A stretch of 56,981 nucleotides of DNA, filler included, from Dimargaris cristalligena (Eukaryota): NCBI GenBank assembly GCA_003614675.1. It is 6 parts of 6 records of this genome, joined end to end, with 100 filler letters (N's around TTAATTAATTAA, not from the genome) between each part and the next. Parts side by side here need not be neighbours in the genome. Positions count along the whole stretch, not along the records: positions 47,612 to 56,981 come from ML003265.1; 5 more parts are not named here. One strand, given 5' to 3'. Below, in pieces: positions 6,560-56,981 of this stretch; within the stretch, counting starts at the first letter, position 1; each line of letters begins with the position of its first letter. The notes beneath the pieces were generated by a model. That model ran no database searches and had not been told where the DNA came from. It saw only the letters and a list, made by a program, of their open reading frames with translations. A program made the translations under genes and the position numbers.

Positions 6560-8035
6560 ATGCTACCGCTTAGAAATATTCTCGCGTCTACAGTGGCGGC
6601 TCATTTAATGACCGTTGACTCACCAGCGAACCTGGGTCGTCATAACACCATCGAACATTCCGAACCCGCATGGTTGAGTGATGTGTTAGGCTTACCTGTC
6701 CTGGTGAAGGAGAGGGTTCTAAACCATTTGAGTGTACCAGCCTATGTCCAGTGGACCCCCGTGCTGCTGGGGACCGACCCTATTGACGTTCTTCAGCTCT
6801 CTGAAAAGGCAGGTGCTTTATTTATATTCACCGTTTATATGCTGTGATGGAAGAAATTTTGGCCACGGTGGGCCAAACCTTAGGTTTCATCCACCAGTAT
6901 CGGCACATGCAGTCCCATAGTCTAGTTCACACAACAATCATACCAAAAAAAAATATTCCCATTTTTCCACTTGCCAACTTAGGTCAAGGTATTTTTGAAT
7001 CGTTGTCAAGAAAATCTAGTGAGAAGTAATTCCGAGTCAGCCCAAGCTAAAGGGTCTACGAACGAGTGGTTTGCCCATGTCCCATTGGAGGCCACCAACG
7101 CAATTAGCGAAACCTTGGCGGGCTTGGGCTGTCGTCGCTCAGCTACTGGTCAGGCCGTATCAAGCCGGACCGGGACATCACCGAACAATAATGCTCCGGG
7201 AATTGACTGCACCTACCTTCAATCGAAGCTTGGCGCCCCGCTGCTCAACCGTACTCAATGGAAATACGTCAACCTAAACCGAGTTTCACCAATCGAAATA
7301 TTTCGCTATTTCTCCGTCGCCCAGATGGCGGATATCAGTACCCTGATGGCACTTGCCACAATGGCGTCAACCGTCCTCCGCCCTACGGACCAATCCCGAA
7401 CGGTCCCACCGGTCGATTATAGCCCATTGAACCTGGGTCTGGATTTGAACCTGGTGGAGCATTTCGCATTACCGATTAGTACCCTTTATAGCACGAGCTT
7501 TGCGATTATGCTGAATATGGCTCTTTGGCGCCTATACCGGGAGGGCAACACCAACCAACTCCATGTCTTTCTTTTTCCCCGGATCAAACGGGGTTCACCC
7601 GGCCGTATTTACCAAGCCTTTCCGTTCATTAAGGGTGCCATCAATTTCATGCTCACATTGGGAATTGCCCGTCGGGACACCCCTTTTGTTGAGTCCGTTA
7701 GCCAACACTGGTTCGAGTCCAGGGCACCCCGGTCCGGTCAAAATGGAACGGAAACAAGGGCAGCCCAACAAGCGTTTTATGAATGTTTACGCGTCAATGG
7801 CTTTGCCGATAGTTTCCGGACCAACCTTGGATTGCGATGGAGATTGACCGATCAGAACGAAGAGCAGGATTCCTTAAAGTGCGCCAAAGTGAATTTCGGT
7901 AGCCGGTGGCTTCGGGTTAAACCAAATGGGGATGTTCTACTGGGCTATTTTGCCCCTCATTTCGTGTTTAATGAAGCTGCCATTGTGGAGGTTTCGCCGG
8001 CTGATACTGTCCTGCCCGTTATAAATCTCAATTAG
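6560..8035 (+). CDS. Uncharacterised F-box-like family protein, paralog A (exons 6560-6808 and 6983-8035, ~433 aa)
   Basis: gccaccATG start; F-box-like VLGLPVLVKERVLNHLSVPAYVQWTPVL; exon 2 is in frame after cttag|GTCAAG. Colinear similarity with 53454-55038, including the intron position. Confidence 0.8.
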
Positions 8036-8433: not shown

Positions 8434-8439
8434 TCTAGG

Positions 8440-24695: not shown

Positions 24696-24770
24696 AACAA
24701 TAGGGAAAATAGGCACTGGACGGTCCCAAAAGTAATAGGCGGCGGGAATGAGGCCCGGGTAATGGGGAAT

Positions 24771-24818
24771 AGAGGGAGAGGGAGAGGGAGAGCGAGAGAG
24801 AGAGAGAGAGAGAGAGAG
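24771..24818. repeat. (GA)n/GGGAGA microsatellite upstream of XRCC3
   Basis: agagggagagggagagggagagcgagagagagagagagagagagag seen directly. Confidence 0.8.
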
Positions 24819-28544: not shown

Positions 28545-28644
28545 NNNNNNNNNNNNNNNNNNNNNNNNNNNNNNNNNNNNNNNNNNNNTTAATTAATTAA
28601 NNNNNNNNNNNNNNNNNNNNNNNNNNNNNNNNNNNNNNNNNNNN
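28545..28644. other. Artificial contig-joining spacer
   Basis: N44-TTAATTAATTAA-N44. Confidence 0.98.
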
Positions 28645-34600: not shown

Positions 34601-36966
34601 TCCGTCATTGGGGGAGTCACTGGCCGGGAATCCACTTGCTTGTCCATCGAGGGATGGCGACTGGCCGCGGAAGGCACTGGGCCCGAGTCGCCGGCAGCCA
34701 CCACGGATCGATTGGCCGGGGTGGGGGCTTGGGAAGCAATCATCTCGGCGAGTGACACCCGACTGGCGGCCCGGGATACCGGATCGGCCACCGTAATCGG
34801 AGGGGTTCCTGGTTGAACCACCGACCGGTTAGCCAAGGATGCACGGCTAACGGGTTGGGACGCCCCACTTGCCTGGACCTCCGGCGGCGCAGGCTGGTCC
34901 GGCAGGAGCGCCTCGTCGTCGACCTTAACGGGCGGGGGAGACTCCGCCAAGGCCAGTTCCGTAGCGGAGTCGTGGCGGGACAAGCGGGGGGTGGAAACAG
35001 CTTCCAGGCCAGCCAGCGATACCCGGGAAACATTGGACTGCGACGCGCGGAAGTGACCACTACCGGTACCTTGCACCGGCGCAGGGTTCACCGACTCCGA
35101 GGCGGGCTGGGCCTCTTCCGCAGCATGGGTACCCGAACGGCCAGGGGCCGGAGACGCGGGCAAATTGACGCGGGACTGGCTTCGGGTGGGTGAATTCCGT
35201 TTGGAAAGGGAATGGCGGCTGGCCTTTAGACTGGGGGACGGCCGGCCTGACGAACGCCGGGAGCGGATTTTAGGCGAGGCGGCGGGATCCACCAGGGACG
35301 CGCGGGACTGTCGAAGGCTGGGGGGTTGGGAGTCCATACGAATCGGGGTTCGTGGGGAGAGGACGAGGTCGCTAATCTGGGATTGGGTCAGTGAAATGTT
35401 CCCCGTGGGCTCGGCTGCCGGTTCCTCCGCTATACTGGTGTCCTTAACCAGGCTGGCATTACTATGTTTATGAACCGCGTCGCCGGGCTGTTCCAGCTGC
35501 GACCGTGACATACGGGCACTCTGCTCAGCCCCCGCCTTTGGCAGCGAACTGGGCTGGGGGGATTGATGGGTCGAACCATGAGGAGGGGATACTGGGGCGG
35601 TCGGCTCGGCCAGGGGCTCGGCTACCACGGAAGTCCGGGAGCGCGGGGCAGAGGGGGGAGGGGCATCCTCCGGTGGGACGGGGGCAGAGGAATGCGTCGA
35701 CTTTACGGATACCCGGGAGGTCGATGGCTCCGGGATGGGGGCCGCCCCTTCGTCCACCTCCACCTGAGCTAGCTGGGACCGAGATGCATGGACACTGGGC
35801 ACGGCACTGGCTAGCCGACCGCCGGAGTTTTGGGGTGAAATGTGGGGGGAAGGGACGGCCGACACCGGATCGGCCAGCAGAGACCGGGATGCGTGAACGC
35901 TACTCGCTTTTGGTTCGATGGAAGCCAGGGGCTCGGGCTGGACAACGGTATCCAGCTGGGCCAGACTGGCGGTGCGGCTGGGCTGTTGGGAGTGCGACCG
36001 GGACCGGGCTGCTGCAGCCGGTGTATCGACTACGGTGGGGGGCAGCTCGGCGGGTATTACCGAGTCCAATGGCTCCGCCGGGTCAGCATCGTTCAGCATG
36101 GAGGTTACCAGCGGCTCGGGGCCGGCCATATCTAAAACCATGCTCGCCTTCTGGGTCAGAAGATCAATGGAATTCTCGATATCCTGTAAATCGGGATCGG
36201 TGGTGGCCAGATTCAGCCGGCGACTGCTGCCGTGGAAGGAACTCGCGACTAGGCCGGCGGATTCCATCGGGGGCGACATGGGGGCGGGGATATTGCCCTC
36301 CTCGGCCACGATGGAGTCGAAAAAGGAGCTTTCGGTTGAGTCCGAGCGGTTCCAGTGGGTGGGCAAATTCGGGGTGGAAATAGATATGGTGGGGACGGTC
36401 TTGCGGCGGGCGGAGCGCTCAACTCCCGACGGAATGATGCGGGCGCCCACCATAGGCCAGCGGGCGGGATCATTGGACGCAATAGGCTGGGTGCCAGCCG
36501 AGGGGAGGGGCTGGCCCTGGGAACGACCCCGCAGCCGGTTGGCCTGAGTGGCGGCGGCGCGGGCCAGGAGGGTGGAAGCGACGGGCGGCTGGTTATGGTG
36601 CTGGAGAAGCGACTCCAGGCTGCTGTCGAGACTGCTGAAACTCGAGGGACCGTCGGAATACTCGTTGGTGTAATGGTGGACCCGGTTAAAGGTGGCCCGT
36701 GACCGAACGTTTAGGGGAATCACGGTCAACCGGAGGCAGCGGGCACCGGTGGGATCGAGCAGGGGAATGATTTCGCGGAGCTCAAAAGTAGAGCTGCAGG
36801 TGATTAGCTCGCCTTCCTCGTCCTCGTACTGGAGGTAAAAGGGAAAGTCGATATGGAAGAGGGAACGCACGTTGTGGTCCATGGCGTCCCAGGTGAGCTC
36901 GGTGTCATCGTTGAAGACGAATTTGCGGACAACGCTGCGGAAAGTGAGCTGCAGGGCGAACGGCAT
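28645..36966 (-). CDS. Giant (>2770 aa, 3' truncated) PB1-domain protein with a large S/P/A-rich tandem-repeat region
   Basis: Uninterrupted 8.3-kb ORF from ATG 36966 (MPFALQLTFRSVVRKF...); PB1 OPCA motif LQYEDEEGELITCSS; remainder looks disordered. Confidence 0.85.
29790..33860 (-). repeat. Coding tandem array, ~40 units of 102 bp (34 aa)
   Basis: Consensus SKQASRQPTAAPSPALAPTEPAEVLEASHHSLAx; about 41 core units counted by eye (a few with in-frame indels), plus 3 degenerate units on the N-terminal side. Confidence 0.95.
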
Positions 36967-38032
36967 GGCGTGGGTGTGGGGAGTAGCGGGAGGGAGGGAG
37001 GGAGGGAGGGTCGCGGGGAATAAAGCGGTGGATAACAAGGGGGAACCGGCGGTAGACGCAGGGTTTAAAAGTATTGGTTTATACCGAGCCACGGCGGAGC
37101 CGGGGATTGAAAGTGAAAGTCGGGGGAATTCTAGAATAGCTCGAAATAGACGAGTAAAGGTAACAAGCGCGGCCGGGACGGCGGCCACGGGCGGGAGAGG
37201 TGGTTGGAATTAAAGGAAGGTTTATGTTCTAAGGCGGAGGCTAAATGGAGGCGGAGTGTGCCGGGTACCGAGGGCTTTATATATAAATATTTAAAAAGAG
37301 AATGAAGAAGGCGGGTTGGCAAAGCACTGACAGCATGGTTAGCGTAGGAAGAGGCGGTGTTGGGGCACGGCGCAGGTGGAACAAAGAAGTTTGCGGGTGG
37401 GGGGTTGTTATTAAACAGGCCACGCCTTCAGGAATTCTGACTTGGGCCAGCCGGGAAACAATGGGGCGACCGAGAACCTCACCGGTGGTGTAACCAGGGC
37501 TGTATATCCACACTCGGCCTCACTATAACTACTACTATACTACCCTACAGTAATCACGGCTGACCTTTTCCTTCTGTATCGTCGTGCATCTTTCCCGGCG
37601 CCTGCATGCCGCCCAAACGATGCCCCAGCCGGTTTCAATAAATCTTGGAAATAACTCGCAATTATACCCCATGACCTTCCATCGACAAGAAACCGTCTCT
37701 CTGATGCATTTCCCTATATCGCTCGTGACCATCACTGGACCATCCTCCCCTCGCAGTGCTCCATCGCGAAGGCCACATGGCGGTTAATCAGCCCTCTAAC
37801 CCATTAATCAAACAACCCTCCGCCGCTGTTCGTTTAGTGAGGGTTACCAGAGAATCGCCAAGCTCGGGGCTTCGATGCAGAAGAGGATCCGGCCAGAATC
37901 TACCCCCACTAGCCCTTGCAAAGTAGGACAGCCCAATGAAACTTGGCTTCATATCCCCAACTTTAGCCCTGGCCTATTCTGGGGCTCTCGTACACGTGTA
38001 ACCACCCCCTTATCAGTAGGAACTGACATCTC

Positions 38033-38132: not shown

Positions 38133-38843
38133 TTTTATTACCTATCTTTTCAAATAAAGTTCAGTTTTCAAGGATTTGATTTCAGTTCTTTACAGTGGTC
38201 ATTGTTGTCCATGGTTATGCTTCAGATATCAAGGCTCCCTTACTGCCAAATACTATAGAACAGTAACATTGCTAAGTTTGGCCTATTTCAGCCCCTAAAT
38301 AATACTAGCATAATGAATTCATGTTTAGTTGGGACATTGTGTTCACCCTTCTAATTAAACCAAAATATGAAATCTGCAGGCCTAGTTCTGTTACAAGTAA
38401 CGATTCCAAGAACCAACTTATTCCTAGAAAATGGTGGGTTGTTCACAAATAAAAGAGCACCCTGTCCACTTATAAATGCACCTATTACCTCATATCCCCT
38501 CTTCCATTCTATTTTTCTTGCCTGTACATATACAGCTGTTTTGGCTGTATTTCCCTTTACATTGATTGAGTGTCAGAGTACATGGGTAAGGATATTGTTC
38601 CTTCAAGGTATAGCCCCAGCAAGTGCCATTCAGTAAGATTTGGAGTGTGTCATATAAATAAGGTTTAGTTCTTCCATAAAGGGTTTTTACTTCTATACAA
38701 TGTGAATATTGATTATGTATCATAACTCTTCCTTTTTCCAATACACTATTGTAGGAGGAATCTGCCTGTCTTGACTGCATCTAGCACCATGATCATAATA
38801 TTTCCTATTGTAGGACTATTTAAATATACTTGAAGTTATATGC

Positions 38844-39388
38844 TGTCACCTGGGTTAACTACCCTTAGTCCATCAAGAGTCCTGAGGATAATCTTCTAAT
38901 GGTAGGCAGGGCTTAGGCTCAACCAAGTGGGCTACTAGTGTTAGGGAGGGATCAGTACTAACCAATAAAGGATGAGTATAGGCTAATGCAAGGGACATGC
39001 AGCAGGCACACTTACTGGCTAATACAAGGGGTGAGTGTATAGGGAGTTTATTAAGGTAACTATGGGGGGTAAGGAATAAGCTAAGGAACTGAACTGGTCC
39101 TAGAGGGGCCCGGTTATTTATATGGGGACCACTCATAATAAGGGGTCCTTAAGAGCAATGGGATGACTAAGGAAGATGAGGGCCAGGGCCTTGGCTGGGG
39201 GGCTTGTATCCAGAAGACTCCACAAGAAAGGAAGAACATTGGATCAGCTGGTGGAGTATTGTGTGAGAAGGGTTGGGGCCTTGTCATAGTGGGTTATATA
39301 GCAAGAGAAGAGTAATAGGGTGCAATAAGGCAAGATCAGATGGGTCAATCAGTATTCCCATATTTAGGGAGGATTAGGTGGGCCGACA
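38844..39388. mobile_element. Solo LTR (545 bp), same family as 16257-16840
   Basis: Termini TGTCACC...GCCGACA; perfect 5-bp TSD TATGC at 38839-38843 and 39389-39393; shared blocks such as gtccatcaagagtcc and agggacatgcagcaggcacacttact. Confidence 0.9.
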
Positions 39389-41409
39389 TATGCCATACTG
39401 TCTTGGAGCAGAAACTTATGAAATATTCTTTTGAACTGGATACTTGGTATATTGTGTTAAATGATTGGCAAGCTGTGCCTTTACGGCCTTTATTTATTCA
39501 ATCTATGCCTTAGTTGAATTACAAGGTAATTATTTAACTTGATAATCAGTCTGCCCACCCCATTAGTTAGGCCATGATACTAAAGTTCTTCTGCTTGCGG
39601 ATTATGTATGGCATACCATGGCCGGGCTATAAACACCCTAACGTTGACATTCTTCCTTGCATAGGCCCCATTCAGCTTAAGGCTGACGGCTTCATTCTAA
39701 AGTCAATCAACCCTTATTCACATACTTTTTGGCTGTATCTCTTTGGGGCATACCAGCCGCTACCGCTGACAGTTGTTATAATTACTCTGGCTGGCCTCCT
39801 TGCGATTTTGTATGTAAATTCTTGGTGCAAAACGTCATTATCAGCACCACTATATTTTAACCGTTAATTATATTTTTTTATTGTATAGGCTCAGTTCTAT
39901 ACAAAATGTGAGCATTAGTGGGATAAACACTACCGTTTAATATTTTAGCCGACCCGCCCCTGTGCTCCATCCCGGATATTACTCATATAGTTACACCGAT
40001 AATATCCTATGATGAGCTTCTATGGATATGCCTGCCTTCAAAATCGAATAATTTATTTCGGATTTTTCTTTATTAAACCACTAGCAACCCAACAGATTCG
40101 GGGCGAGTAGCTGGCAAAAAAAAGGGTAAGCACTCCACCAAATGACCAATCTTTTAAACACATTTTCCCAACCGATCCCGTTAGCCATTTGTATTCCAAT
40201 ACTCATTCCCACAGACTCGAAAGGTCGTCCAGTTTACCAGCTATTTAGCTGCCCAAATAATACCTCGGTTGTATCCAAATACCCATCAGCGACGCAGTTG
40301 ATAGAAAGGCGATTTTTATATAAATCGGCCAAAATCGAATATTGCTTCATGAAATATACTATCAGGGGTGAAAATTCAATGATAAGGACAAACCAATGAA
40401 TATAGTTAAAAGTCCAGTGTTGAAGTAAGATTTAAATAGCGGTGCCGCATTCAAGGTGCAACAAGTATTAACAGTGATAAGCAGGTATAGCCAATAGTTG
40501 TTATAATAGACATACACGTAATCAAACTGGTCCATAGCAATACTGGTTTTGTAAGAAATAAGCTGTTGGACTAGAAGCGGCTTATATAATGGCCGCATTA
40601 CCCCGAAGACAGATGACAACAAAAATAACTTCCCAATTGTATGGTACATCGTATAGAACCCATGATAGTGGGCCTAATGGTGTGCAATTCTATAAGATTC
40701 TGCCTAGAAATGAATAAAACTGTTAGAATAGCAAATGGTATGAGCATGTTAATTAGGAAGAGGAACCGGTAGTAAGAGCTTTAATGATAGGGATGTGAGC
40801 GCTAGTAAACTAAAGGATCAGGATGCGTCGTCCATACACTTTTATACGACCTATAACTGACATCTAAAGGCATTGAGAGGGCCAGAAGACCTACATTATA
40901 CTTCCAAGAATAATGTATGCATGAACCAGTCATTAACCGACTATAGTGTTGTGGAAGTTTTTAGCAAGGAGTCCCTGGTCAGGTCAAGGGTGGCTGTAAG
41001 ACACTCTGGTTATCTGGCATAGCGGCCGGGGCTATAGTCCCAGAAGTGCCAGTGGACTCCAATGGAGCTGGGTTACTTTGGTGACTGGAGTTAAGCCCTG
41101 CCATGACTGCAGCTGCAACAAAACCAACGGGTGGCTGCTGAATATCTTAGCAGTAGCATACAGGGTGTAATGCACTTGTGTTTCTGTCTTTGTATGGGAG
41201 CCAGTAATTACCCAGGAATAATACTAGTTCGAATCATTCTGCCATTAGGGAAATCCACGCCCTAGGCTTTAAAAGAAAAATGCCCTAGAACCCTTAACAC
41301 TACTCGCTACATCTTAAATACCGGATTAGAATACGCGCAAATTGTGCATGCTATCGATGAAATAAAAAGTATTATTAACGTAATACAGCAGGCATCCCTG
41401 GCCTTTCGG

Positions 41410-42442
41410 TTAAACGGGTGGTTTGACCACTTTAATCTGGAATGTACACTGGGGTAGATTCGTATCCTTAATAGTGACTGTACAATCGACCCCCAAATTA
41501 GCCAGAATACCCCGAATAATGCCGCACGGGAACCACAAATACGGCGCGACCCGCTTGGTGGCGTGCACGACGCCGTCATCGCCGGACATGCGCAACAGCC
41601 ATTTGAATTTGTTGTCCTGTAGTATATATACTCCCCGGTGGTTGGTTTTCAGATTGTCGATTTGCTTACGGAACAGTTTAGTCCAGATGTCTTTGCATAC
41701 GAATTTGACCATATCCAGTGTGTCGGCGAGCCGCGGCCGGTCTTTGGAATACCGTTCCGCGAGGCGCTGCCCGACGCGGTAGCCGACCTGTTCAACTTTG
41801 TAGTAGAGGGCTTCATTGATATTATCGTCGGTTTCACTTGGCCGGGTCGTATCCGTCGGCCCGGTAGTGGAGGCCCGTGAACCTAGTTCGCTGTGTTGGT
41901 GAGTGCCCGATTCCTAGGGATGAACGGAAGTATGGCCGTGAGCAAGCATATATATATTTAGAGGTATACTTGGCAACATGGATGAGAAGAGCAATGAGTC
42001 AAAGTACGTACATGGACACACGGGCGCAACCACCATGTAGCGGGTAGGCATTGGAGGCTTAGCCCCTATCCCAGTAGTATGCCCGACAGAAAATCCATTC
42101 ACCGTGACAGATACTAATAACGGTATTTAATAGACCGACAGGTTAACAGGACACCCAATAGACAATACTGGCGGGCGGCTATATGGGAGGGCCCTGGGAT
42201 TGTCCCATTGGCCTTATGAGGGCGAGGTAAGGGGAAAGGAGAGGACGTCTTACCTGGAGACTAGGGTCCTGGTCAGACTTAGTCGAAGTCGCATCTGAAC
42301 TTGCCCGAAGTGCGGCGACCATTTCGATAAACAGATAGTCGAAACAGGCCTCATTGACTAGGGGCAGGGGGCTCGGGTTGGAAGACTGCGATTCGTCCAG
42401 CGTTAGCTGGCGAAAGAGGTTGATGGCCGAGGTAATTGACAT
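41410..42442 (-). CDS. TRS33: TRAPP complex subunit Trs33/TRAPPC6 (exons 42442-42254 and 41913-41410, ~230 aa)
   Basis: VNEACFDYLFIEMV; KVEQVGYRVGQRLAER; KFVCKDIWTKLFRKQIDNLKTNHRGVYILQD; PCGIIRGILANLG; phase-0 GT-AG intron. Confidence 0.93.
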
Positions 42443-43003
42443 GGTCGGTTCGGGAATGCTACTGCAGATGGCAGGAAATGAGAGGACCTAATGTGTCGGG
42501 ATATGTACTGTGGGGATGGAGGAATGGGGAAGCAGCCGTTAGAATGGGGATAGGCTGTAACGAATAAAGGAATGGAGAGGCGAGGAAACTCTGATACCTA
42601 GTAGATGTGGTGAGGGAGGCCATAAAGCTCATTTCAATTCACTGTATCACTTCAACCAATGGCTTGTATAGCTATTGCTACAACAAGGGACAAGTGGTTG
42701 CAGATGGCCCTAGGCAAATCGAGACCAAGGCTCAGCATAAATTCACTATGTAATGATTAGCCTTACTTATATCTACTACGCCAGCATCTGCCACAGATAG
42801 GAGGTTATTCTACAGCCAGCGGCGCATTAAGCCTGGCCTACTGGGCCATACAAGCGTTATTTAAGTGCAATTCACTTTATTTTAGAATAAGCAAAATAAT
42901 GTTCACTTCATAACCTCTGAAAGGGGGTGGTAGCCATACTTGATAAGGATTTCTTAAAAATAACAAAATGCGGTAATCTGTCAACAGTAGTTTGGTGTTT
43001 GCT

Positions 43004-46000
43004 TTAGCAGGACTCGGCCATGGCTATCCACATGGTATCACCCGACTGGAAACCACAATCCTCCAGGGTTTGGAAGTTGCGGCCAACGACCCGAGTGACC
43101 TACATACCACGGCCGCCAAATGAAAATACATTAAAATGAATCTCATTAGTATATCATTTTACAGCATATGTCTTGGAAAATATAAGCTAGACGATTCGCT
43201 AAAGGGATGGGTCGTACTTTGAAAATAATGCCTGAAGGAATGCCTGAAAGAAGCGACTGGTATATACTACTTACCTCGGAATCGGCATTCTCGTGGTATA
43301 TCTCCACCTGGCCAGGCATTTGCAATAGTTGGCCACACTTGGTCCTGAAGTCACGAATGGTGATTGTGGCTATTAAGATGCAACGGCATAAAGCAATGGC
43401 ACAAAAAGTATTGAATTAATACGGTATATGGTCATTTGGACAATTATGTCGGGACATAATGGCTGAGTGAGCAGACGCAGTGCTTCATAGACTAAAATCC
43501 GGTTGGTTTAGAGGAAATACACTTACGAATGACCCTTTTGGTGAGCGTCACCATCGGCTGGGAGGTACTCTTCGGGCTGCCCGTCTGGATAGTCAGCTCT
43601 GAGAATAGAGAAGGCATGGATTTTAGAATTATAATATATAGAGTAGTCGGTTTGGTGGCAAAGAGATTAGATTAGCTGGGCAGGAGTGAGCCTAATGTAC
43701 TTGAGCAGGTGATTGTAAAAATATGAAGTAACATTCAATCGGTACCCATTGACTGAAGGGAACGTTTCCGGGAAATACCAATGGACCAAGATATGTTAAA
43801 CTATTTGAGACCAGTTCACATTATGAGAAAAATGACACGCCGACAATATGAGGAAACCTACCAATCACGCGGGATGCCAAGGTATCAGAACTGGGCTGTT
43901 GTTTAGTAGCATTAGGGAGCCCGTGAACTGGATAAATTAGACAAATATACATTGACATTATGCCCGAAATAAAATCTTGTGAGCTATACTAGGGTAGAGT
44001 AGACCAAAGTGGCCCAAAATTCAACCAATGGGGCAGTCCTAGTGTATACAGATATGTGAGCGGCTAAGAATAGTCGCACTAAACTTAGCGGTATTAGCAC
44101 CCCATTATCGAGGGGCCATTTTCGATCGGAGCCCTTCGCCTCATGACAGGTCCAGCGGTATATACTTACGAGCAACTAAATCACGATACCGCGGGTGATT
44201 GGCGGATATGACATCGGCATCCAGGGCCGGGAACTCTTCGGCGATCAACTTCAGATAGTACAGCTCAATGTCAGTGCGTTCCCGTTTCTTGACCTGTTCG
44301 TGATAAACCCCATTTAAAAAATAAAGCGGGCAGATTTTATGGCGGGTCAGTCGAGCCGGATTGAGGTAATTATGTAAGAGGCTGGATTCCAAAGTCAACG
44401 AAAGAGATATAGGTATGAATCTGCTCTTCCAGGATAACGATCAACTGATTCTTACCTCACTTCCATTTAGCATGGTAATCTTAGCCAGATGTCCAACCAG
44501 AAATAAACGGGCTCGGTCCACAGAAATACCTACCGATCGAGGGGTAAATCACATGCATGATCGGGGGAGTTCAGTTAGCAATTGAGGGACTAAATAAAAA
44601 TTGAGAGAGAATCCAGTCCGAGGTATATAAATACAACACCTAAGCAAGGACAATGTCCCAAAGTACAATTAAGGTTGGGATTCTAATCGGGTCTATTTAA
44701 AAATGAGACATACCTTCTACCACTGGATTATCCCGGAAACGTAGGGCACTCAGTTGGGGAAACTTGTCGAGCTGATCCACAGCCGCCCAACTAGCCAGAC
44801 GGTTACCGTTAATATTCAGGGAGACTAAAGTACGAAATGGGACCTTGCTACTCTCGCTGGACGATTCAGTGGGGTAAAACAAATCGGCAAGCTCGTTGTT
44901 TTGCAAGTCGAGCGAAGTGAGGTTAGGCAACTGGCCGAGGGGGGCTATTTCGGACCAAGCACTCAAACCATTGCCCTCGAGCGACAAGTGCCGCAAGGCC
45001 TGTAAATGGTTGGATAAGCAGCCGGGGATTGAGGTATCTAGGACCGATCCCAGTCGGGTGATGCCGTTGAATCCCACGGATAGGGTCTGTAGTTGGGGAC
45101 ATTGGCGCGCGATACTGATTATTTGGGGCCAATGGAGCTGGGTGTGGTTCAGGGCGACTGTTCCCAGATCGAGGGATTTGTGTTGGTCGGTATCAAATGC
45201 AACGGTCTCTGGACCGATGTTATTATCGCTAAATGCCCATAGTCCAACAATAATTTGGGCAAATCCCGAAATATAAGAAGAAGGTTAAAGTAGCTGGATC
45301 GGCCGAGCAATTTTCATGTTCGAGGTATTATGGATTCCCGGTTGGGTGGGCTGAACATGGTCGGTAATGACAAAAGTCGGCTGAATTCCAATACCAACCA
45401 CCGCTTAGACAACCAATGGTGGATCAATACTGATATATATACGATATATCCATACGAACAACAACCCCGATTGATCTAGTTTAGCTTACTTGGCTCGTAG
45501 AAGTCGGAGGCTTGGTAAAGCCTGGGCGATGTTCCAGAGGTCCGCCCAATCGCGCAGCAGGTTTCGGGACAGATCAAGCTCCTCGGCCGCTAATGTAATA
45601 GGCAAATAGCCCCAAGGGGCAATCAAATGAATGAAGCAATAGCATAATGTTTAGTAGGCCAGAATATACCACAGGCCCGTTGGTGGAGAAGTCGAGACAG
45701 TGGGATGGGGGGAGAGACCCGGCAGATTATTAGGAATGGGTGACGCCTGCTAACCTACAGTGCGATAAATGGGCTAATATGGCGAAGAAAATCAAGAATT
45801 CCTCTTACCTGGACACAACGAAGTGATTGTTTCTGCATCGCCACCTAAGCCATCGATGGCCTGATTCGCCAGGCCGATGGTGCGTAAGGTATGCAGTTGA
45901 CTGAAGCGACCCTGAGCCCGGTCCCATCCACAGGTCTGCACGGCAACGCCCGAATCCCCGAGGAACTGGGGTTCCGCCGCCGAAGAAGCCGCTTCCGGGT

Positions 46001-46388
46001 TCGGGGTTGAATTCGAGTTGTCATTCAAACTCGACCCCGGGCCGGCCAACCGGTGGGCCAGGGCCACCAGTTCCTCCCGTTTCGCTACGCCCTCGAGGGC
46101 CCGGTCAACTACCTGTCCGCGGGCCGTTACCAGATACTTCTGAACGAGGGCCTCAAGGAAGGTCTGGCCCCAGCGTAGGGGAAGATGGGGACGGAGGAAG
46201 GACCCCGCGACAGGGGTGGCGGTGGTGAAATAACGCACACCACCCTTACTACCGTCGTGCCTGCCTCGGGTGGGGTCATCCCATTCCACCCCCAGCCAGA
46301 GGTCGGGTGTGCCGGCTACGGGGCCTTCGTAGCGTAATGTACCCCGGGCCCCCTGGTATTCAAAGCGACGATTGATGCGGCTGGACAT
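43004..46388 (-). CDS. TBCE: Tubulin-folding cofactor E (TBCE/Pac2/Alp21), about 9 exons
   Basis: CAP-Gly domain GTLRYEGPV..WLGVEWDDPTRGRHDG; LRRs (EELDLSRNLL, LRHLSLEGNGL, LTSLDLQNNEL, LRFRDNPV); ERTDIELYYLK; UBL-like end TLEDCGFQSGDTMWI. Internal exon boundaries are approximate. Confidence 0.9.
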
Positions 46389-47511
46389 GGGAAGAACTGA
46401 GTTGGGTTGGACTGGGCTGGGCTGGAAGGATATAAGTTGGAAATATCGGAAAGGTGAAATAGGACTGTACTATTATGGAGGCCCAAGGATAAAACGAGAA
46501 TAAAAGGGAGGAGGGAAAAAGACAACGCAATGAGCCCGGCCCTTCCCTTTGTTAGGAATGCAGTTTACAGTACACTAAGGCAGGTCAATGGGTCTTACTC
46601 GTCCGCCCCCGGGCTTGCGTAAGTCAAGGGGGCTCTAAAATGAACTCGATGTACATAAAAATTAAAGGGAATAGGATTCTCGATTGCCTTGGGGTAGTAA
46701 ACGGGGAGAAGAGAAGAGGGGATATAAATTGTATTTATCGAAAGCGCCAGCCCACAAATACGGGTCCTCTAAGTGAAACAAGGGCCACCAGACTTTGTAT
46801 TTCGGTCATTACAGGCGAAATCAACTCGAGGATTTTATCTAGCAGTCGTCGCTTTTAATTAATTGAAACAGCGCGCATCCTCCAATAAAAAAACCTCGTG
46901 AGGCAACTATACCCTCACGCAACCGAAAACGGGGGCCTTTCCCATCTATTTTTGGTTTCGGTCTATGGCGTATGGACTAGGCCGCGATGCTACAACTCTC
47001 CCCCCCCCGTATCTCTCGCTTCACCCCGTTCGTTGGACAGCTGGTCGACGTCAAGTGTAGTAATAATCGCAACACTTAAGCCCTCTCGAGCTGCTAGATT
47101 GTCAAGCCTTTCAACTAGATAGACGTAAATGACTAATGTAATGTGAAGGGAAGAGATACGCGACTAGGAATATCGGAACGGGGTACATAAGTAAAGCAGT
47201 CTTAGTGTCCCTGGTTATCCGTTGCAAGCCCAAGAGTACCGGTCCCATTCGCTTTGTCCTGTGGCACACTCATCTACTCAAAGGAGCGACTAATGCGGGT
47301 TATCGAACAAAGGAAGGGGGTTGAGGGAGGGATACCTCCTCCTTTATTTTCGCTCTTATGCGGGTGGATAGTGCCTGTTGGGCTAGCGTTTTATTGCAGC
47401 ACACAGACTAACTAGGATGAAGCTATATACATTTAACCATACGTAAATCGGTGACAGCATAAATACCGTCGGTGCCGCTGCCATTTACTAACAACTATCG
47501 TATTCCTCGGC

Positions 47512-47611: not shown

Positions 47612-49159
47612 CATTCGGTGAGCCGGAAAGGGGGGCGGTCGAGGCCGAGGATCCGGCCGCTTTGGGGCCCCCGCTGAAGGAAAAGCCCGGGAAACTCCAC
47701 CCCAGCGTTCGGCGGGGTTTCGGCACCTCCACATTGGGGCCGTGGGACACGACCAAATGGTACCAGTGACCCGGTCGGATCTCCCGGCCGCGCACCAGCA
47801 GAGTAGCCAGGGGACCTAGGACGGTGGGTTCGGTCACTGGACCGGCGGCGGAGGTAGTGGGGGGCACTCGAGCGAGTTGGTAATGGACACTCAAAAGTTG
47901 GGATGTGGGGTCCCACTGGACGTGAAGCTCGGTGGGGGCACTGGAGGAGCGGGAGGGTAGAAGCCGGGCCTCCAGATCAACGAAGGGTTTCGAGGATAGG
48001 GATATCAGGGTCATGGGCTGGATATCGTCGCCGGGCTCGATACAAAACCAGAAGGCGATACTATAGCCCTTTGTATTGACCAATTGGTGGGTGTGGGTCA
48101 CGGTGATGCCCGTGTTTAGCTGGTCCAGGTGAAAATAGGAGGCCGACAGTGAGTTTCGGTAGGCGCGGGCGGGCAGCCGGGCGGGACCGTCGGGGTGGGT
48201 GGCGGTGAGTAGTACGTCATTCAGAATTTTCTGGACGAGGGCGTAATCGGTCCTGGGCCTTTCGGGAAAGGTACCCCCGGTCAAGAATTGGGAATAGGGG
48301 AAATAGAGCGAGTATTCGGGCTGGTCTACGGCTATGGGGGCTTCGGGGTCCCCGGGGGACATGGGGCAATTAAACTGGGCCGGAATCGCCGAGCAGCGTG
48401 CGTGGGCCTGTAGAAATGCGGTGAGCTGGGGCATGGTGGTGGCGTAGCCTAATAGGCTGGTGACCAGGGAGGTGGTATACCGATGGACATTGTCCCGGTA
48501 GGCCGACGATGGGGATTCGGGCAGAGTAAGGCACCATAACTCAATGTGATCTAATAGTAGCGCGGGGATGCGGGAGGTGTGCAGGGCCCATAGGGTTCGC
48601 TCTCCCCGGCCCACGAGGGCATTGAGGCGCCAAAGAAATTGGGCGACTAGTTCGATAAGGGGGTAGGTCTCGGCGGGGACTGTAGGTGGTGGTTCGGAGG
48701 ACGCAAGATCCATGTGAAGTGCAGCTTCGCGAAGGAGGGCAAGAATCAGCTCAGTCAGACCCGTGAGCACGCGGATACCCTCGGGGGTCAATTTTAGCGG
48801 AGTGTTGGTTACCGATATAGCACTGGGGTGGTGGGCGAGTAGTGTGGATAGCGGGCTTGGCCAACGCGGCTGGCTTACGATATGGCCCCAGAGGGCTTCC
48901 CAGATGGCCGGCAGCCGCACCAATAGGCTACACCGCCGCAGGGCCTTCATGGTCCGCTCGCAACCTCGCAACTCTCGGTAGAAAAAGGGGCGAGCTGCAG
49001 GCGACTGGCGAATATGGGCGGTTAACAACTGGATACATGTGGCAATAATGGCGGCCAGCTGACAATTCCGTTCGACCCGACGCTGGTCGCGACGGCTCTC
49101 GCCCTTTCTCGGCTGTACCGAACCACGAATGGCGCCATTCCCGTCGCGTCGGTCCCCTG

Positions 49160-49201
<42 letters not shown>

Positions 49202-49595
49202 ACGATGCCTGATTGTAATGGGCAGAGGCAGTGTACTTCGGTTTAGGTGGTGACTGGTATAGTAGAATGCACCATTCAAGGGCTAGAAGGATAGGTTCCA
49301 TGGTCGATACGGAGCCACTGCTACCACAGCCAGGGCTGGGGGGTACGGCCGAGGCGGCTAAGCAACCGGTGAGTTGGGAGTGGGTCTTGGCCAAAAAGGC
49401 CGGGTCGGCCTCATCCGGGCAATTTTGGTACTCCGTCAAATAGTCGATTAAGGTGACGCAAAGCGATTCCACCGGGTCCCCCGCAGCCAGGGAGGTGGTA
49501 TATGGCGACGAGGAGAACGGGGTGTTAGACATAGGTTCGGCCGACAACATGGGGTGGTTCGCCTGGCCCCGTGGGGGGGCAGCCGGTGGAGACAT
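47612..49595 (-). CDS. N-terminal part of a probable BEACH-family protein (helical region plus ConA/LamG-like domain), truncated
   Basis: ORF open to the gap; GYSIAFWFCIE and IRPGHWYHLVVSH resemble the ConA-like lectin domain of LYST/WDFY3/neurobeachin-type proteins. The BEACH domain itself is not in the window. Confidence 0.55.
49161..49200. repeat. (AGT)13 coding microsatellite (poly-Thr)
   Basis: agtagtagt... seen directly; encodes the poly-T run in the minus-strand ORF. Confidence 0.9.
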
Positions 49596-52304
49596 GGGGC
49601 AGGGTTTTGATGAAGGGGGAGAAGAAAGTTGGTTTTCCAATTTAAAGTGGAGACGGCTTATGAGACTCAGGCGGCAATACCGATAAGGAGGCTAGAGTAG
49701 TCGGGGAGTAATTTAGAAAATAGGAGACGGCGTTTTGGTGGCCTTGACCCACCGTTTTCGGGTGGCAAGCGGGCTGAGTGCACGGAGGGGTGTATCAGTA
49801 TGTAAATGTTTTTTAATAAAGAAGTAAGGGCTCCACAGCAGTCCGATAGCTAACAAAGCACAATGCGGTGGATGGCTGGAGCCAGACTAAGCACTCCGAT
49901 TCGGCAATAGTCTAAATCAGCGGGCAAGGAACGACTAAGCAAACTATATATATAATACAGAGCAAGACGGACTTATAGAAATAGCAGGGTATATAACTAA
50001 ATAGGCGGGAGGGAAAGAAAGGAATGAACCAAGTGGTGCAGCATATAGGAGATGAGGTGGCTCTGTTCCAGTCAGGGTAAAGTTAGGAGGATGTGCGTAT
50101 GCTGTGTACGTGTGGCCTATGGGAGCCAGATATCCTCGTCCGCTTTCAGCAGGGTGTCGCTCAATTTGCCGTTCTCTCCTTCTCCCATCATTAAAGCGCC
50201 GCTGGGGCTATTGTGGGGAAACGACTCTACTGTTATTAAGGAAACGAGGGTTGCCAGTGAACTCCATAGTCTAGCCTGGGCCACACAGCCCCGGCCGCGT
50301 ATGGGCTTACTAAGGTATAAGATCAATGGAATGGGTCATATACAGTCTTAATTAGGACCCTTTACCTTCCAGCCAGGTTGATTCAGCACGCCAGTCTGGG
50401 GAGAGTAGAAGAATCCTTTACCCAGCCCTCCGAATTCCTCTCACAGCAGCCACGCTACAGTGCATCAATTCCCTTCCATTGGCCTTCTAAAACAATCGGT
50501 CATTCCCTTATCCCTACATCCCTCTCGCACCATCCCAGTACTATTTGAGATGAGTTGGACCCCGCTGGATCACCCACGGTGCTAACAAAACACTCCCGAT
50601 GCAAAATAGGTAGGCTGCATTAGTGGGTGCATTCTTCACTCAGGAAACACCCTGACGGATCCCTAAATATACCATAAATAGGGATGCAGGTGCGTTGATT
50701 GGTGCTAATTTAGCTCCCTGCCCACCGCGTATGTAATAAGCGGCTCCTGCTGCCTAATTATGAATTGGCAATAGCCACCCTTGGCCATTCACTCCAAATC
50801 TACCACTATGTAGTAGTGAGCGGGTGGCACACAGTGTAAAGGGGGAAGGGGATCACCACTTCATGTCTCACTGGCCATCGTCTCTGTCCCGCGCCATTCT
50901 CCCCATAAAAACCCCCGGGTGCCCTCAGTTTCGGACATTCCACAAGCCTGACCATCCCCGCTATTGGTGACTGTTTTCCGTCGATACTTGCGGTCCATTT
51001 TCATATGTTTTTTAAATCAAATACGTAACGCTGCTGTACTATGGTGCAGCCACCTGCTAGTCCCCAATTACTCCACTAATCAACAACCATTCCGCCTCAG
51101 CCAGCATCTTATCATTCGGTCTGGGTTCCAATAGCCTAGAGTATACTATTCATTTACAATCCTATTTTGGCGATCTAGGAATTGCCTGGGCCGGTGGACT
51201 CTGCATTAATCGATTCCTTAATTGGGGTTTGGGGATAGTTGGTGTTTAAAGATCACCGTCGAGGGATACTGTCCCATACTCTTGGTACTCTGTAATATAT
51301 GCGTGGCTTCCCATGGAAACCTTATATTATAGGGCCATTTTTGATTAGCACCTAATGCGTGTGCAACCACAATCCGAGACGAACGTCCCCGACCCTACCC
51401 CCTCACGTGACCTAATAAACCAAACGCCCCCCTCGAGCGATGCGCGAACGATAGCCGCCCCCGACAATCCCTAGAATAAGCAGGAAGTATAAAACGAACA
51501 ACATGTTACGGGATCCCAATATCGGGTATATTTAAATAAAATACTTATATAAACTTTACTAGTCGGTTACTCTAAAGGTTCCATGTTCCCCACTCGGACC
51601 GTAGCTCATTGGTAATTCATTCCCCGGTCCTCCTCGGCCATTGTGTTATACGTGATTCCCATACACATGTAAGGTTTTGGATGGTGCGGATGGGGTACCT
51701 TTAAAAATACCGGACAGGGGGGTGGGGGTTAAGACTGCCTATACAGATGCAGTGGTTCTTATATGCATACTACAAGTCAAGACTACTGATACTTATTTAA
51801 ATGGTCCAAGTCAGCCCACGGCAAAGCACTTGACTATAATTCATAGCTTTTGAGGGTTTTTGACCAAATTACCCATTATCATGTTCCCTGTGGATAGCAA
51901 TTATGACCAAAAGGTCGCCTGCCTTAGATTCACTTTAAATAAAACTCTACTTCATCTGACTATAATTCAGCCCAAGGAGATAATATTAATGACCCAGAAT
52001 CAGATTATAACTAACCCCTGCTTTCAAAGGAAAAGTTCAATATTGGGAACGATCACGTGACAATCAGAATGGCATCAAGTTTCGTGGATACAGGCATTTA
52101 TAGTCTAAATAGTAAGCGAGGAATCGGTATTTCCTAAGAGAATGCCCAAACTGCTGGTAAAAAGAGCTAGAGGGTCTGGATAATTAATTCATTGTACGCT
52201 ATTCATCAATTCATGACTAGTACCGGTTGGAAACAAACGGCATCCTGAGCAGCGGTCTGTAGCAGGGATGCCAAATAAAATCACTGCAGGGAATTGTCAA
52301 TTGA

Positions 52305-52446
52305 TATGGAAGAAATTCAAACCAGCTGTATAAGGTTTTACATAATACATGTATGGACGAATATATGCAAGAATATCTTTTAACCAGTGATATTGACCTC
52401 ATCCAATGGATTTTTCGTTATACGGCCTGAATGAACTTCTCCCATA
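52305..52446 (-). mobile_element. MITE-like element, ~138 bp, TA flanks
   Basis: TA|TGGAAGAAATTCAAACCAGCTGTATAAG ... TTATACGGCCTGAATGAACTTCTCCCA|TA; the reverse complement aligns end to end with 8292-8433 at the same length. Confidence 0.78.
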
Positions 52447-53453
52447 TTGTTTTCTAGAAAATGGCCCAGGCCTGACTTCCCTCATTCAATCAATTAGTTT
52501 CCGTGTTTACGGATATTCAGAGCTACCTACCTACTCGTTTGGGTATTTTATATCAATCGGTGGGTTATTAAAACCACGTGATCAGTAGAAGCCAGCTAGA
52601 TATTGAGCAAATGTGTTATTCGGTAGAGGGCCGCTAGTGGTCATGGTGAATTCTTTCTCCTCTAGCGCAATCCCGTCTGGTGCTCTAGTGACAAAGACTT
52701 ACCGCGGTACTATAACCAGCCTCTTCCATATTTACGGGCGAGGGTGCCTAAAAAAGAAAGACACTCGATATTATTGTCCCCGGTCATTCCAAATCAAAAT
52801 AGGCGGATAGAGTGGCATGTAGAAATACCACTGCTTCATTGGGTTAGCTGCTCCCATGAAACTGTTACCTTGGTGCCACACAAAGTAGTACGGAAATGGG
52901 CGCCATTTTATTTTTCCTGCCTTGACTTCGTCGATGGGCCGAGGGTTTTCTCCCCGCTGTGGATCGATATGCTCCCGCTTCGCCCCATTTAACTTCTAAT
53001 TAGCAAAATTATTGGCCTGGTAAATCGGCGGTTTGAACTTTCCCCTACAAGACACAGAAGGCGGGTTGCATCGACTGGCCAATCAAATGTATATATACAC
53101 AGTACTTGGCGCGACGTCTCACAGTGTTGTACCCTGGCAAAACAACACACTGGCGTGTTGGCGAAGTTCATCCCTTAAGGCTAAATCAAAATACCGAAAC
53201 TATACGTATGTTAAAAAAATCGGGGATCGGGCATCTCATCAAAGATGCCTATCTTGTTGTTATGCCTTTCTAATCACACCTTCGGGTCTCCCCAAATCTT
53301 CTCTGTTCCCAATTCCTCGTCGTCGTTTACTAATTTATTTGGTTTAACTAACTTGTAATATATTTCGGCTCGGACTCATTGCATGTAATTTCCGTCAGCA
53401 TATTTACAACTGGGGCCAAACTTTGATACTTATCTCCCAGCCAAATTCGCAGT

Positions 53454-55038
53454 ATGAGGATAGCCAAATACCTATTGGCCGGATTGGTAGGGTTGAGAAA
53501 CCATCAGAAATTTGATGGCCGTGACCATGTTAGTACTTCCCCCCAGCTGACTTTAGGCCAAAGAATTATGGACCTACCAGCAGAATTGCGATACCTCATT
53601 GCGGAGAAAATAAACCTTAGTGACTATATTCGGTTGGCTCCCATACTGTTTCCGAACGAAGCGAACTTACAAATTCAACTTACGAAAAAGGTCGGTGAAA
53701 ATGAACCGCCTTATTTAATAATCAGTCTCTCCTAGTTACTTTTCTCCCACTTATGCGAGACTAAAGATATAGATGAAAGCTGGAATACCCGAAGTGCCGA
53801 TCCTGGTGCTTTGCGACGCGTGGGTAGACCTGGATTTATCGATACCTTGTCAACACTAATTAAACCGAATATGAGTGTTCTTTATTCTTTATTGTGGAAA
53901 TCCGCCACATTCCTTGGCCTTACAGATCAATGTTTTCATACGGGAGCTTAAGAATATAGCACCTGTGCTGCAACTGGAATCTGAGGCTGAAAACGAAATT
54001 GGGAGGTATGAGATATCCCAGGGCAAACTGGATGACATGTTAGGCCACTGGACCACCGTGTTTCCGTTAGTAGCCAACACCGCCCTCATTGGAATCATTG
54101 GAGATGGTATCGACACTAGTGACCGTCACCGCACATCTGGTACCTCCCTTAGGTTGCTCACCAACGGTCAGGTTGATTACATGAAATTTGAAACCTTCTT
54201 TGGTACCAATCTACCGCAACAGCCATTCTTCGCCCAATCCAACTGGCGGTTTCTCAACATGGACCACCCATCTCTCTCTCTCGACGGGCCTAATCTGGCG
54301 ATGCATTTCCCCTTGGTAAAGTATGCAAACCTGGAAACGCTCACTCTTCTCAATGATATTGACGGTGACCTGGAAAGGGGATCTGTCCATAAGCAGGTTT
54401 CCAGACCGCAGTTTGAGATTATACGTAAAGAGCTGAATTTTAGTGCGCTTCAGGGAATGTACTATAATATGCAGCACATCCACTCCATCATAGTCGCGTT
54501 ATCAGCGTGTTTAATACTTCACCGCCTGTACCACAGTCCAGAGACCCAACGCCGTGCTATAATCGTCGAGTTTTTGGATCTTCACTTCCAGAAGCCGAAC
54601 TATCAGGACCCTTATCCCAAGCCCCATCGGCTGATGCAAACTGCAGTCGCCTTTATGCTTACTCTAGCCTCCGTGCGGAAAGACCTGCAGCTGGTGATAG
54701 CCCTCACTGATCGGTGGAATGGAAAATTCCAGAGGGAGGCTCGAAATACTGTGGGGGGCCCCAAAAAACCGTTCGGGAATTGCCTAGAAGCCGTGGGTTT
54801 GGACGAAGGTGCCGAATACCTGCGTAAGGTTTGGGCGATAAAATATCCAGAGTTGACTTTAGATATGGGGGAGTGTGCCAATCTATACCCGGACACGCGT
54901 TGGCTTCGTGTATTGCCCGATGGGAGTGTGGCCTTGGCCTTTTATTCCAAGGATTTCAGGTTTCCAGATAAAGCTACACTCGATATTTCAGTTATCTATA
55001 AGGCTGAGTCGGATTTTAAGTTAATGACATGGAAGTAA
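53454..55038 (+). CDS. Uncharacterised F-box-like family protein, paralog B (exons 53454-53690 and 53926-55038, ~449 aa)
   Basis: F-box-like IMDLPAELRYLIAEKINLSDYIRLAPIL; phase-0 intron AAG|gtcggt...ttacag|ATC; colinear with paralog A. Confidence 0.82.
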
Positions 55039-56644
55039 TCGGCTTTACCGGATACGGTTATTACTAGGCAGCTCAATTAACGTTATTATCTCTTTTTTTT
55101 TTTTCAATTTGTTGGCAAGTGGCGATTATAGTAAGCCTTTAATAGAATCGTTATAAATATGGCTTTGTTTAGATAGAGTGAATCAATCAATCTATGAACT
55201 ATGGATACAGATTGTCTGTAGTTTACAATCGGGCCGGTGGTAATCATTATATTTTCCGCTAATACACGGACTCGCTCTGCAACACTGGTTAGCGTACCAT
55301 GCTTCGGATAACATGGTACCGTGCAATGCCGAGTATTGAAACCCATGTACATTTAGAGGGTGGGGTACGACTGGGATTTCCACTCTCTTCCACTAATCCC
55401 CTTGGTTACAATGGCTCTACCTTTGTATGATTCGGTCATCACTGCAATACTATTACCAACCCAGTGCGATTAGTTTTGTTTAAATATTGGCATGTAACCT
55501 TGCATCGATCAGTGCCCCCTTTTGGGGCCCCGTTTATCCCGTTTACTACGGCCGGGTATTATCGCCAAAACAGGTAATGGAAATCCTAATAGCGTCATTT
55601 AGCTTGATGTGTAGGCGTGCCCCAAGAAATAGTCAATAAAATCGAGACTAATGGTGGAAAGGCACGGGTAGGGCAACTAGATGCTGCAATCAACAAGTGA
55701 GTGAAAATGAGGCATACTTTACAACCGGAGTTTGCGGCTAGTTAATGCTTTCGTGTCAAACATGGTTCTTTAATTTCAAGTCAAGACCAATTTAAACACC
55801 TTTTTATGTTGTTCAGGGGTACTTTATCATATTATAGGTTTCCCGAGTAATATTTAAAAACCCATACATTTTGTCAGGCTCAAAATTTTTTGCATTACAG
55901 GATGTGAATATCTGGTATACTAATATCTATATGATTGAGGTTAAGGAGAACGGCATGGACCTGTTTTCGAGCCTACTGCATATTATATTCATTGGCTTGC
56001 CGAGGTTCGAATATATAGCCTGTTTGTGTAAATATTGCAGTAAATAATATGCAAACTGAAGGAAGAAGCACCGACGTGCTATTGTTTGGAGCTACCAATT
56101 AGCACTTTGTCTAGGTTCCAGGTCTGTTCAGATTTAATACTCATTAATTAGTATCCCATGGTATAGGCCATGTGGGGCAGTACCAATCTTGTGAAGCCAA
56201 TTGTTACCAACTAAAAAGTGGTGTGATAACCGTAGGCACTCTCGGTGATGATATCCCAGGATCAATAAAAATCAGTCTTTTATTAAATAGATTCGAAGAG
56301 TTAAATGGCCATGAGGAGAAGGCTGCCCTCTTTAGCAAATTTATTTAGTAGATATATTTAGACACATGGGAGGTAAATATTTTCATAAGGTAAGGTCAAT
56401 AAAATAATCTCATGCTTGGGATGAGGTGATTTGTAAACAAAGAACACCTGTTTGTGATATATATTTTTGGGTGCCTGGTAGTCCATTGGTACGTAATTTG
56501 CCTTCGGGAATTCTAATGGAACTTTGTTCCGTTGACTGGGTCAATATATTTCCAAGTTGCTTACTTTCAACATGTTATTTTACTTCGTATATCGGTCTAT
56601 TACCATCATTAATGGGTTAACAATGTTATGTACAACTGACAACA

Positions 56645-56787
56645 TTAAGGGAATATTATACAAGTCTGTATAACGAAAAATATGTTGGATTAGGCAGATA
56701 CAACTGGTTAAAAATGAATCACCTGCCTATTTTCCCACACACATATTATTTAAAGCCTTATACAACTGGGCCGGATTTCGCCCATAT
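56645..56787 (+). mobile_element. Diverged MITE-like copy
   Basis: tgtataacgaaaaat...ctggttaaaaat...ttttcccacacacatattatttaaagccttatacaac...gccca|ta matches the other copies. Confidence 0.65.
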
Positions 56788-56805
56788 TAATGATCGTTAT
56801 ATGTA

Positions 56806-56981
56806 TGTCGCCCCTCCTAATCCGTCCTAATCCAACCGATATGACTGCCATCATATCAGGCCGTATAGCGCCATATTGTACCCCCCGGTGTCACAGAGTG
56901 GTGGTGTCGGGCCACTAAAATGAACAACAAAAATATATCAAAAGGGCAGGGTGGCTTCTCCAGGTGAACTGGTTTGTCACT
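56806..56981. mobile_element. Partial LTR related to the two solo LTRs, in the opposite orientation and cut by the contig end
   Basis: tgtcgcccctcctaatccg matches the reverse-complemented ends of the solo LTRs (tgtcagccctcctaatccg; tgtcggcccacctaatcc); tatagcgccatattg versus tatagtgctatattg further in. Confidence 0.6.

Follow-up and report, generated by a model that had tools for sequence, protein, structure and literature searches.

The window analysed here is the whole 56,981-base stretch of Dimargaris cristalligena DNA, in which six contigs of ~9.4 kb (1-9480, 9581-19038, 19139-28544, 28645-38032, 38133-47511 and 47612-56981) are joined with blocks of N between them. On the last of these contigs (47612-56981) lies a gene, referred to as gene A (53454-55038), and on the first (1-9480) a second one, gene B (6560-8035), and these two genes and the protein family to which they belong are the subject of this analysis. 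Genes A and B were confirmed to be real paralogs: the products of their second exons align in BLASTP at E 2e-15 with 58 of 263 positions identical (22%), the products of their first exons align at E 0.001 over 42 residues, and their introns fall in the same alignment column, both in phase 0. An earlier note, made by reading the sequence only, had described the two as related genes sharing colinear blocks and a common phase-0 intron; all of the blocks it listed were found again, and the shared intron was likewise recovered.

Exon 1 of gene A (53454..53690, + strand), which was delimited from the list of open reading frames and the sequence, encodes 79 residues and ends in phase 0 with ...QLTKK. 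It carries a hydrophobic N-terminus, MRIAKYLLAGLVGL, followed by an LP-x-E-L helix segment, and it matches residues 16-78 of the paralog P0004 in tblastn (E 7.6e-6). A GT..AG intron of 235 nt (53691..53925, +), in phase 0 and at a position homologous to that of the gene B intron, separates it from exon 2 (53926..55038, +), which encodes 370 residues plus the stop, comprises the conserved all-alpha core, and was detected at E 8e-56 by tblastn with P0004 as the query. The spliced product of 449 residues is colinear with P0004, with 35% identity over 402 residues. Compared with this, both public models of gene A, P0002 (190 residues) and P0011 (195 residues), are truncated, skipping an internal stretch and being without the N-terminus, and their internal intron is spurious. 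Three further features were located on the + strand of gene A: an F-box-like segment at 53565..53648 (residues 38-65, IMDLPAELRYLIAEKINLSDYIRLAPIL), which stays below the Pfam cut-off and holds the LP-x-E-L motif at residues 41-45; a conserved cysteine stretch at 54781..54876, bounded by C365 (54781-54783) and C396 (54874-54876); and an RWLRV motif at 54898..54912, part of the block that the alignments show to be best conserved across the family, G-S-R-W-L-R-V-x-P-x-G.

Gene B has the same organization. Its exon 1 (6560..6808, +) encodes 83 residues, with the N-terminus MLPLRNILASTVAAHLMTV and an LPVLV helix segment, and its product recurs unchanged at the start of the public models P0001 and P0010. 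The intron (6809..6982, +; 174 nt, phase 0) has GC..AG borders and is the same as in the P0010 model, and exon 2 (6983..8035, +) encodes 350 residues plus the stop with the all-alpha core, which gives a spliced product of 433 residues. The splice between LSEK and VKVFL agrees with P0010, which derives from a second public assembly, at 431 of 433 residues. In the P0001 model the donor is a GT lying 4 nt further downstream and the acceptor is also later, and the resulting GT-AG intron deletes 23 residues in frame; these residues hold a K-x-N-x-F-L helix that is kept by the paralogs and retained only by the GC-AG model. The two public models of gene B thus disagree over 6809-7051, and this disagreement may reflect an annotation error or alternative splicing. 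The gene models drawn in the earlier note hold for both loci.

To what extent the family reaches beyond the window was examined with a two-sequence profile, run without a word index against 1,835,955,588 protein representatives (50% clustering). This search recovered nine proteins at E <= 0.001, of which seven reached E <= 1e-10 and six E <= 1e-30, and all nine clusters, with 15 members from two assemblies, are named only as a 'hypothetical protein' of D. cristalligena. Because gene A is mis-annotated in both public protein sets, the number of nine loci is a lower bound, and further unannotated copies are possible for the same reason. The restriction to a single species does not reflect a gap in the database, since a control search with the TRAPP protein encoded in the window recovered orthologs from three other Dimargaritales proteomes, namely Tieghemiomyces parasiticus (81% identity), Dimargaris xerosporica (71%) and Dispira parvispora (66%). 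The unrecognised, lineage-specific family posited in the earlier note is thereby borne out, with nine of nine matches in D. cristalligena only and the related proteomes present as a control. The large expansion that the note had deduced from finding two copies on six contigs was not recovered, the count at 50% clustering being nine loci, as a lower bound.

When exon 2 of gene A was used in a word-indexed protein search, no match was returned, and the family alignment gave three rows of 8000 scored candidates, all of them from D. cristalligena, so that this type of search is unsuitable for counting. Among metagenome contigs, the four-protein alignment A6 gave 98 pattern matches, none of which encodes a relative, and tblastn with eight family members detected only the two copies in the window. 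Identity between paralogs is 22-40%, and each protein differs between the two strains at 0-5 residues; on these distances, the nine loci are an old or fast-diverging set and not a large recent expansion. That two of nine loci lie within 57 kb of a genome given as 20-30 Mb (PMC9866270) is above chance expectation. As an observation on the annotation of one paralog, the model P0014 (724 residues) leaves the family near residue 420, and its ~300 extra residues are without counterpart in P0007 (447 residues); P0014 probably joins two neighbouring genes into one model. Taken with the structural data below, the two genes represent a real, undescribed all-alpha family that is species-restricted in the collections searched.

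The family proteins are ~430-480 residues long. A short hydrophobic N-terminus leads into an N-terminal segment of four helices starting with L-P-x-E-L, and this is followed by a compact all-alpha core that carries a cysteine pair and, near the C-terminus, the G-S-R-W-L-R-V-x-P-x-G hairpin. The closest full-length paralog of gene A, P0004, was modelled with AlphaFold2 from a ten-row alignment, giving a mean predicted local distance difference test score (pLDDT) of 74 and a predicted template modelling score of 0.77. In the model, residues 30-411 form a single compact body made up of some twenty helices and two short strands. The N-terminal helix (residues 1-24, pLDDT ~50) is unpacked, and the C-terminal tail is disordered and rich in Ser, Pro and Glu; P0009 ends instead in a 19-residue hydrophobic tail. 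W383 and G390 of P0004 are nearly invariant across the family alignment. The cysteine pair, spaced by 31-35 residues, is formed by a Cys at alignment column 415 in nine of nine rows and a Cys at column 449 in eight of nine rows, and P0004 contains no cysteines besides these two.

No relationship to a solved structure emerged from the full P0004 model. Foldseek returned nothing at E <= 0.001 (template modelling scores of 0.10-0.17), and VIA-align against 48,161 chains found generic helical solenoids, headed by RRN3 (7oba_O, Z 7.1, root-mean-square deviation (rmsd) 7.7, 237 aligned), followed by ASCC2 (6yxq_B, Z 6.5) and designed repeat proteins, with Z values that lie within the tool's stated background for unrelated helical proteins. 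The family thus shares an all-alpha architecture with alpha-solenoid and TPR-like scaffolds, but differs from them in that its Z values stay in the range of unrelated helical proteins and none of the Foldseek rows reaches E <= 0.001. A whole-family profile, A3, retrieved a single row among PDB sequences, PHO23 at E 0.089; the ESM Atlas gave no usable feature match for P0004 residues 26-100 and 100-411, its structure rows being unrelated with template modelling scores <= 0.49; and a Pfam scan of the family found no family above threshold. Judged from the model, these proteins appear to be compact and all-alpha, without a convincing known fold. Restriction to one species (nine of nine matches) and the lack of a Pfam domain above threshold are both properties by which secreted effector candidates of biotrophic fungi are recognized.

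We next consider where such proteins may act. D. cristalligena is a haustorial mycoparasite of Mucorales, and the Dimargaritales attack other fungi via appressoria and haustoria (PMC9866270). Cokeromyces serves as its host, and a supplemented axenic medium for growing D. cristalligena is described in PMC6784888. A short hydrophobic N-terminus, which the earlier note had reported for genes A and B, proved to be a feature of the family: the best 8-residue Kyte-Doolittle mean is at least 2.0 in seven of eight full-length N-termini, compared with 0.8% of 118 cytosolic N-termini and 10.2% of 600 internal family segments, the windows differing slightly in that the first 35 residues were used for the family N-termini and 22-residue segments for the controls. 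P0004 (MKVNNFGIALFALLAGRQYSSA), P0009 (MKVYITSALLAVFSFTNLGRA) and P0015 each combine a positive n-region with a hydrophobic run of 11-15 residues, and two of them, P0004 (MK-VNNFGIALFALLAG-RQYSSA) and P0009 (MK-VYITSALLAVFSF-TNLGRA), look by reading like textbook signal peptides. In terms of the von Heijne rule, which calls for small residues at -3 and -1, P0004 and P0009 have small residues at both positions, and P0015 has a poorer cleavage site; the remaining N-termini of the family read as weak to moderate signal peptides. The earlier remark that the signal peptides look weak is therefore fair for genes A and B, and does not extend to P0004, P0009 and P0015, which look canonical.

Three features, the hydrophobic N-terminus, the cysteine pair and the C-terminal tail of one paralog, would lean towards entry into the secretory pathway, and the cysteine pair and the tails of P0009 (hydrophobic) and P0004 (Ser/Pro-rich) are all compatible with a secretory or surface protein. 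We tentatively read the genes as belonging to a lineage-restricted family of proteins that this haustorial mycoparasite secretes or displays on its surface, the L-P-x-E-L helices being just a part of the domain, and regard this as possible though short of probable. Under such a reading, the hydrophobic N-terminus would be an endoplasmic reticulum (ER) signal peptide or derived from one, the proteins would act extracellularly or on the cell surface, most plausibly where the parasite meets its host fungus, and the L-P-x-E-L segment would form the first helices of a domain and not a Skp1-binding F-box. Secretion, a disulfide between the two cysteines and a role in parasitism are what we infer here.

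Several points weigh against secretion. The call rests on a Kyte-Doolittle heuristic and on reading of the sequences. In gene A, the hydrophobic run is only nine residues long, RNHQK comes next, and positions -3 and -1 lack small residues. In the gene B branch, the N-terminus is only moderately hydrophobic and conserved in sequence (M-x-L-K-x-x-L...V-A-S-x-L-T-x-F-N-S-P-x-N-P), and sequence conservation is unusual for signal peptides. Typical secreted effector candidates of fungi are also smaller and richer in cysteine than these proteins. Gene A matches two Pfam F-box models below threshold, which would point to the cytosol if the segment were an F-box.

Some of the same points would fit an intracellular orphan family that is neither F-box nor secreted, such as a helical scaffold associated with membranes or organelles in which the conserved N-terminal hydrophobic helix serves as a structural or anchoring element. 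Conservation of the gene B branch N-terminus in sequence, beyond mere hydrophobicity, is in line with this, as are the size and low cysteine content of the proteins and the likeness of the core to nothing other than generic helical solenoids and scaffolds (VIA Z 7.1, rmsd 7.7, 237 aligned). It is, however, rather unlikely in view of the canonical-looking signal peptides of P0004, P0009 and P0015, the invariant cysteine pair, and the N-terminal helix being unpacked in the model (pLDDT ~50).

The segment near residue 40 had led the earlier note to propose an F-box, based on an LP-x-[E/L] motif behind the hydrophobic N-terminus. The motif itself is real: LP occurs in six of eight aligned N-terminal segments, the leucine of LP is invariant, and the family consensus reads LP-x-E-L-x3-I-x3-L-x-L-S-x-Y-x2-W-A-P-V-L, the hydrophobic spacing of which resembles that of F-box helices 1-2 in the Pfam consensus. 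At the level of Pfam models, gene A reached 16.3 bits (E 0.0099) with PF13013 (F-box-like_2), for which the cut-off is 21.6, and its isolated segment, a region that had been chosen in the earlier note for its motif, gave E 0.0044 with F-box-like_2 and E 0.093 with PF00646 (F-box). These two matches are not independent, because the PF13013 and PF00646 models are related. No other member matched the Pfam F-box models, so that gene A is the only one of ten rows and of eight N-terminal segments to do so. In the Pfam check suggested by the earlier note, gene A reaches two models, and everything stays below threshold and is confined to this one member.

The F-box helix-3 signature is [CS][KR]xW, and it is absent from the eight aligned segments, in which A-P-[VI]-L is followed by a Gly/Pro-rich loop instead; the Trp of the gene B branch lies ~7 residues before the place of the signature. 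A 63-residue N-terminal fragment folds alone into four helices with a pLDDT of 89.7. For this fragment Foldseek gave five rows, all at E >= 4.8, in a comparison that included no true F-box as positive control, and in VIA, run against the 48,161 chains, the TPR domain 3rkv_A came out highest (Z 5.1, rmsd 4.2, 60 aligned), with no F-box protein among the top 50, a result that still leaves room for an F-box. The N-terminal segment profile A4 retrieved two PDB sequences at E <= 10 (E 0.71 and 1.6), neither of them an F-box protein. Compared with the Pfam F-box families PF00646 and PF13013, the Dimargaris proteins share an N-proximal L-P-x-E-L and F-box-like hydrophobic spacing over ~25 residues in short helices, and differ in scoring below threshold or, in the other members, not at all, in having no helix-3 Trp signature, in placing a signal-peptide-like N-terminus before the segment, and in that Skp1 binding is putative here. 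An F-box of any kind is unlikely, though by no means far-fetched, and an F-box identity of the family is weakly supported.

If the segment were an F-box, the genes could encode endogenous cytosolic proteins, serving as lineage-specific adaptors of SCF (Skp1-cullin-F-box) ligases that dock on the fungus's own Skp1, with the all-alpha core as the substrate-recognition domain and an N-terminal hydrophobic stretch that is no signal peptide. Lineage-specific F-box expansions do occur in fungi, and the F-box-like_2 match of the gene A segment (E 0.0044-0.0099), the PF00646 match (E 0.093), the helix 1-2 spacing of the F-box consensus and the independently folding short helices (pLDDT 89.7) are all in keeping with it. 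We nevertheless hold it to be decidedly unlikely, since the gene A score of 16.3 falls short of 21.6 bits and is found in one of ten rows and one of eight segments only, the segment profile recovers no solved F-box protein at E <= 10, the helix-3 [CS][KR]xW is replaced by a Pro/Gly loop, and canonical-looking signal peptides lie directly upstream of the segment in three paralogs.

The earlier note had gone further and suggested that these proteins, if secreted, could be effectors that redirect host ubiquitination. Such secreted F-box mimics would pass from the haustorium into the Mucorales host fungus and recruit host Skp1 there, the all-alpha core picking host proteins for SCF-dependent degradation. 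This joins the signal-peptide-like N-termini with the sub-threshold F-box-like segment of gene A, and it suits a biotrophic haustorial mycoparasite (PMC9866270) as well as a species-restricted family with deeply diverged paralogs. It requires, however, that two individually weak components both be true; the family is small and without great expansion, and its proteins hardly vary between the strains (0-5 residues each). We know of no host-delivery route for D. cristalligena. F-box effectors in the part of the literature covered are mainly bacterial, with none from a fungus. The idea of an F-box effector, attractive as it is, goes back to one sub-threshold match, and we regard the secreted mimic as very improbable.

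The bacterial F-box effectors to which the idea appeals (Legionella AnkB, Ralstonia GALA/RipG and Agrobacterium VirF) resemble the Dimargaris family only in the hypothesised logic of a parasite protein with an F-box-like motif. AnkB is described as delivered by a type IV and RipG by a type III system, and both as carrying an F-box. Unlike these effectors, which use dedicated translocation systems, the Dimargaris proteins are eukaryotic; their N-termini are of ER type, their motif stays below threshold, and their all-alpha core is unrelated. With lineage-specific candidate families of secreted effectors in biotrophic fungi and oomycetes, such as the alpha-helical RxLR-WY/LWY effectors, the Dimargaris family has in common that it is species-restricted, deeply diverged, helical and signal-peptide-like and comes from a haustorial biotroph; there is no sequence or convincing structural relation, and the host of Dimargaris is another fungus. 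The Phytophthora LWY effector 9j5i_D reached Z 5.8 (rmsd 4.6, 214 aligned) in VIA with the full model and AVRvnt1 (7xp9_A) Z 3.6 with the N-terminal fragment, both at background level. The main text of the genome paper (PMC6784888) makes no mention of secretion, effectors, F-box or signal peptide.

The surroundings of the two genes share a short repeat. An element of ~150 bp resembling a miniature inverted-repeat transposable element (MITE), with inverted ends of ~30 bp (ATATGGGAGAAGTTCAAC... / ...GTTGAACTTCTCCCATAT), occurs at 8291-8435 (+), 56646-56791 (+), 52300-52447 (-) and 1-81 (+), the last copy being cut by the start of contig 1. One copy lies just 3' of gene B, and gene A is flanked by two inverted copies, at about -1 kb and +1.6 kb; with two loci only, a link between the element and the family is unproven. 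A transposon origin of the genes was considered and ruled out, as the paralogs are 22-40% identical and their flanks share short MITE-like repeats only. Elsewhere in the window, eukaryotic open reading frames were found for a protein kinase, Brf1/TFIIB, a Rad51-like ATPase, a TRAPP subunit, a CAP-Gly protein and a leucine-rich repeat protein, and an Rfam scan of the window gave no matches. An open frame of 2870 codons (28597-37209, -) occupies almost an entire contig. A PB1 domain (E 4.6e-8) lies at its N-terminus, its GC content is 0.60-0.66, and a ~4 kb block of it (29.8-33.8 kb) contains internal repeats, seen as numerous shifted self-matches of 64-79% identity. A dispersed repeat of ~280 bp was also found on two different contigs (16259-16540 and 38846-39124, 80% identity).

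One outcome for the annotation of this genome is a correction of public gene models, gene A being truncated in both protein sets. On present evidence, the family is one of the many orphan families of any poorly sampled fungal genome. If true, a secreted F-box mimic would be a fungus-against-fungus F-box effector, and to our knowledge no fungal F-box-type effector aimed at another fungus has been described before. The haustorial mycoparasites of early-diverging fungi are nearly unstudied at the molecular level, and a species-restricted, signal-peptide-like, all-alpha family of no known fold offers a reasonable entry point to how one fungus manipulates a fungal host.

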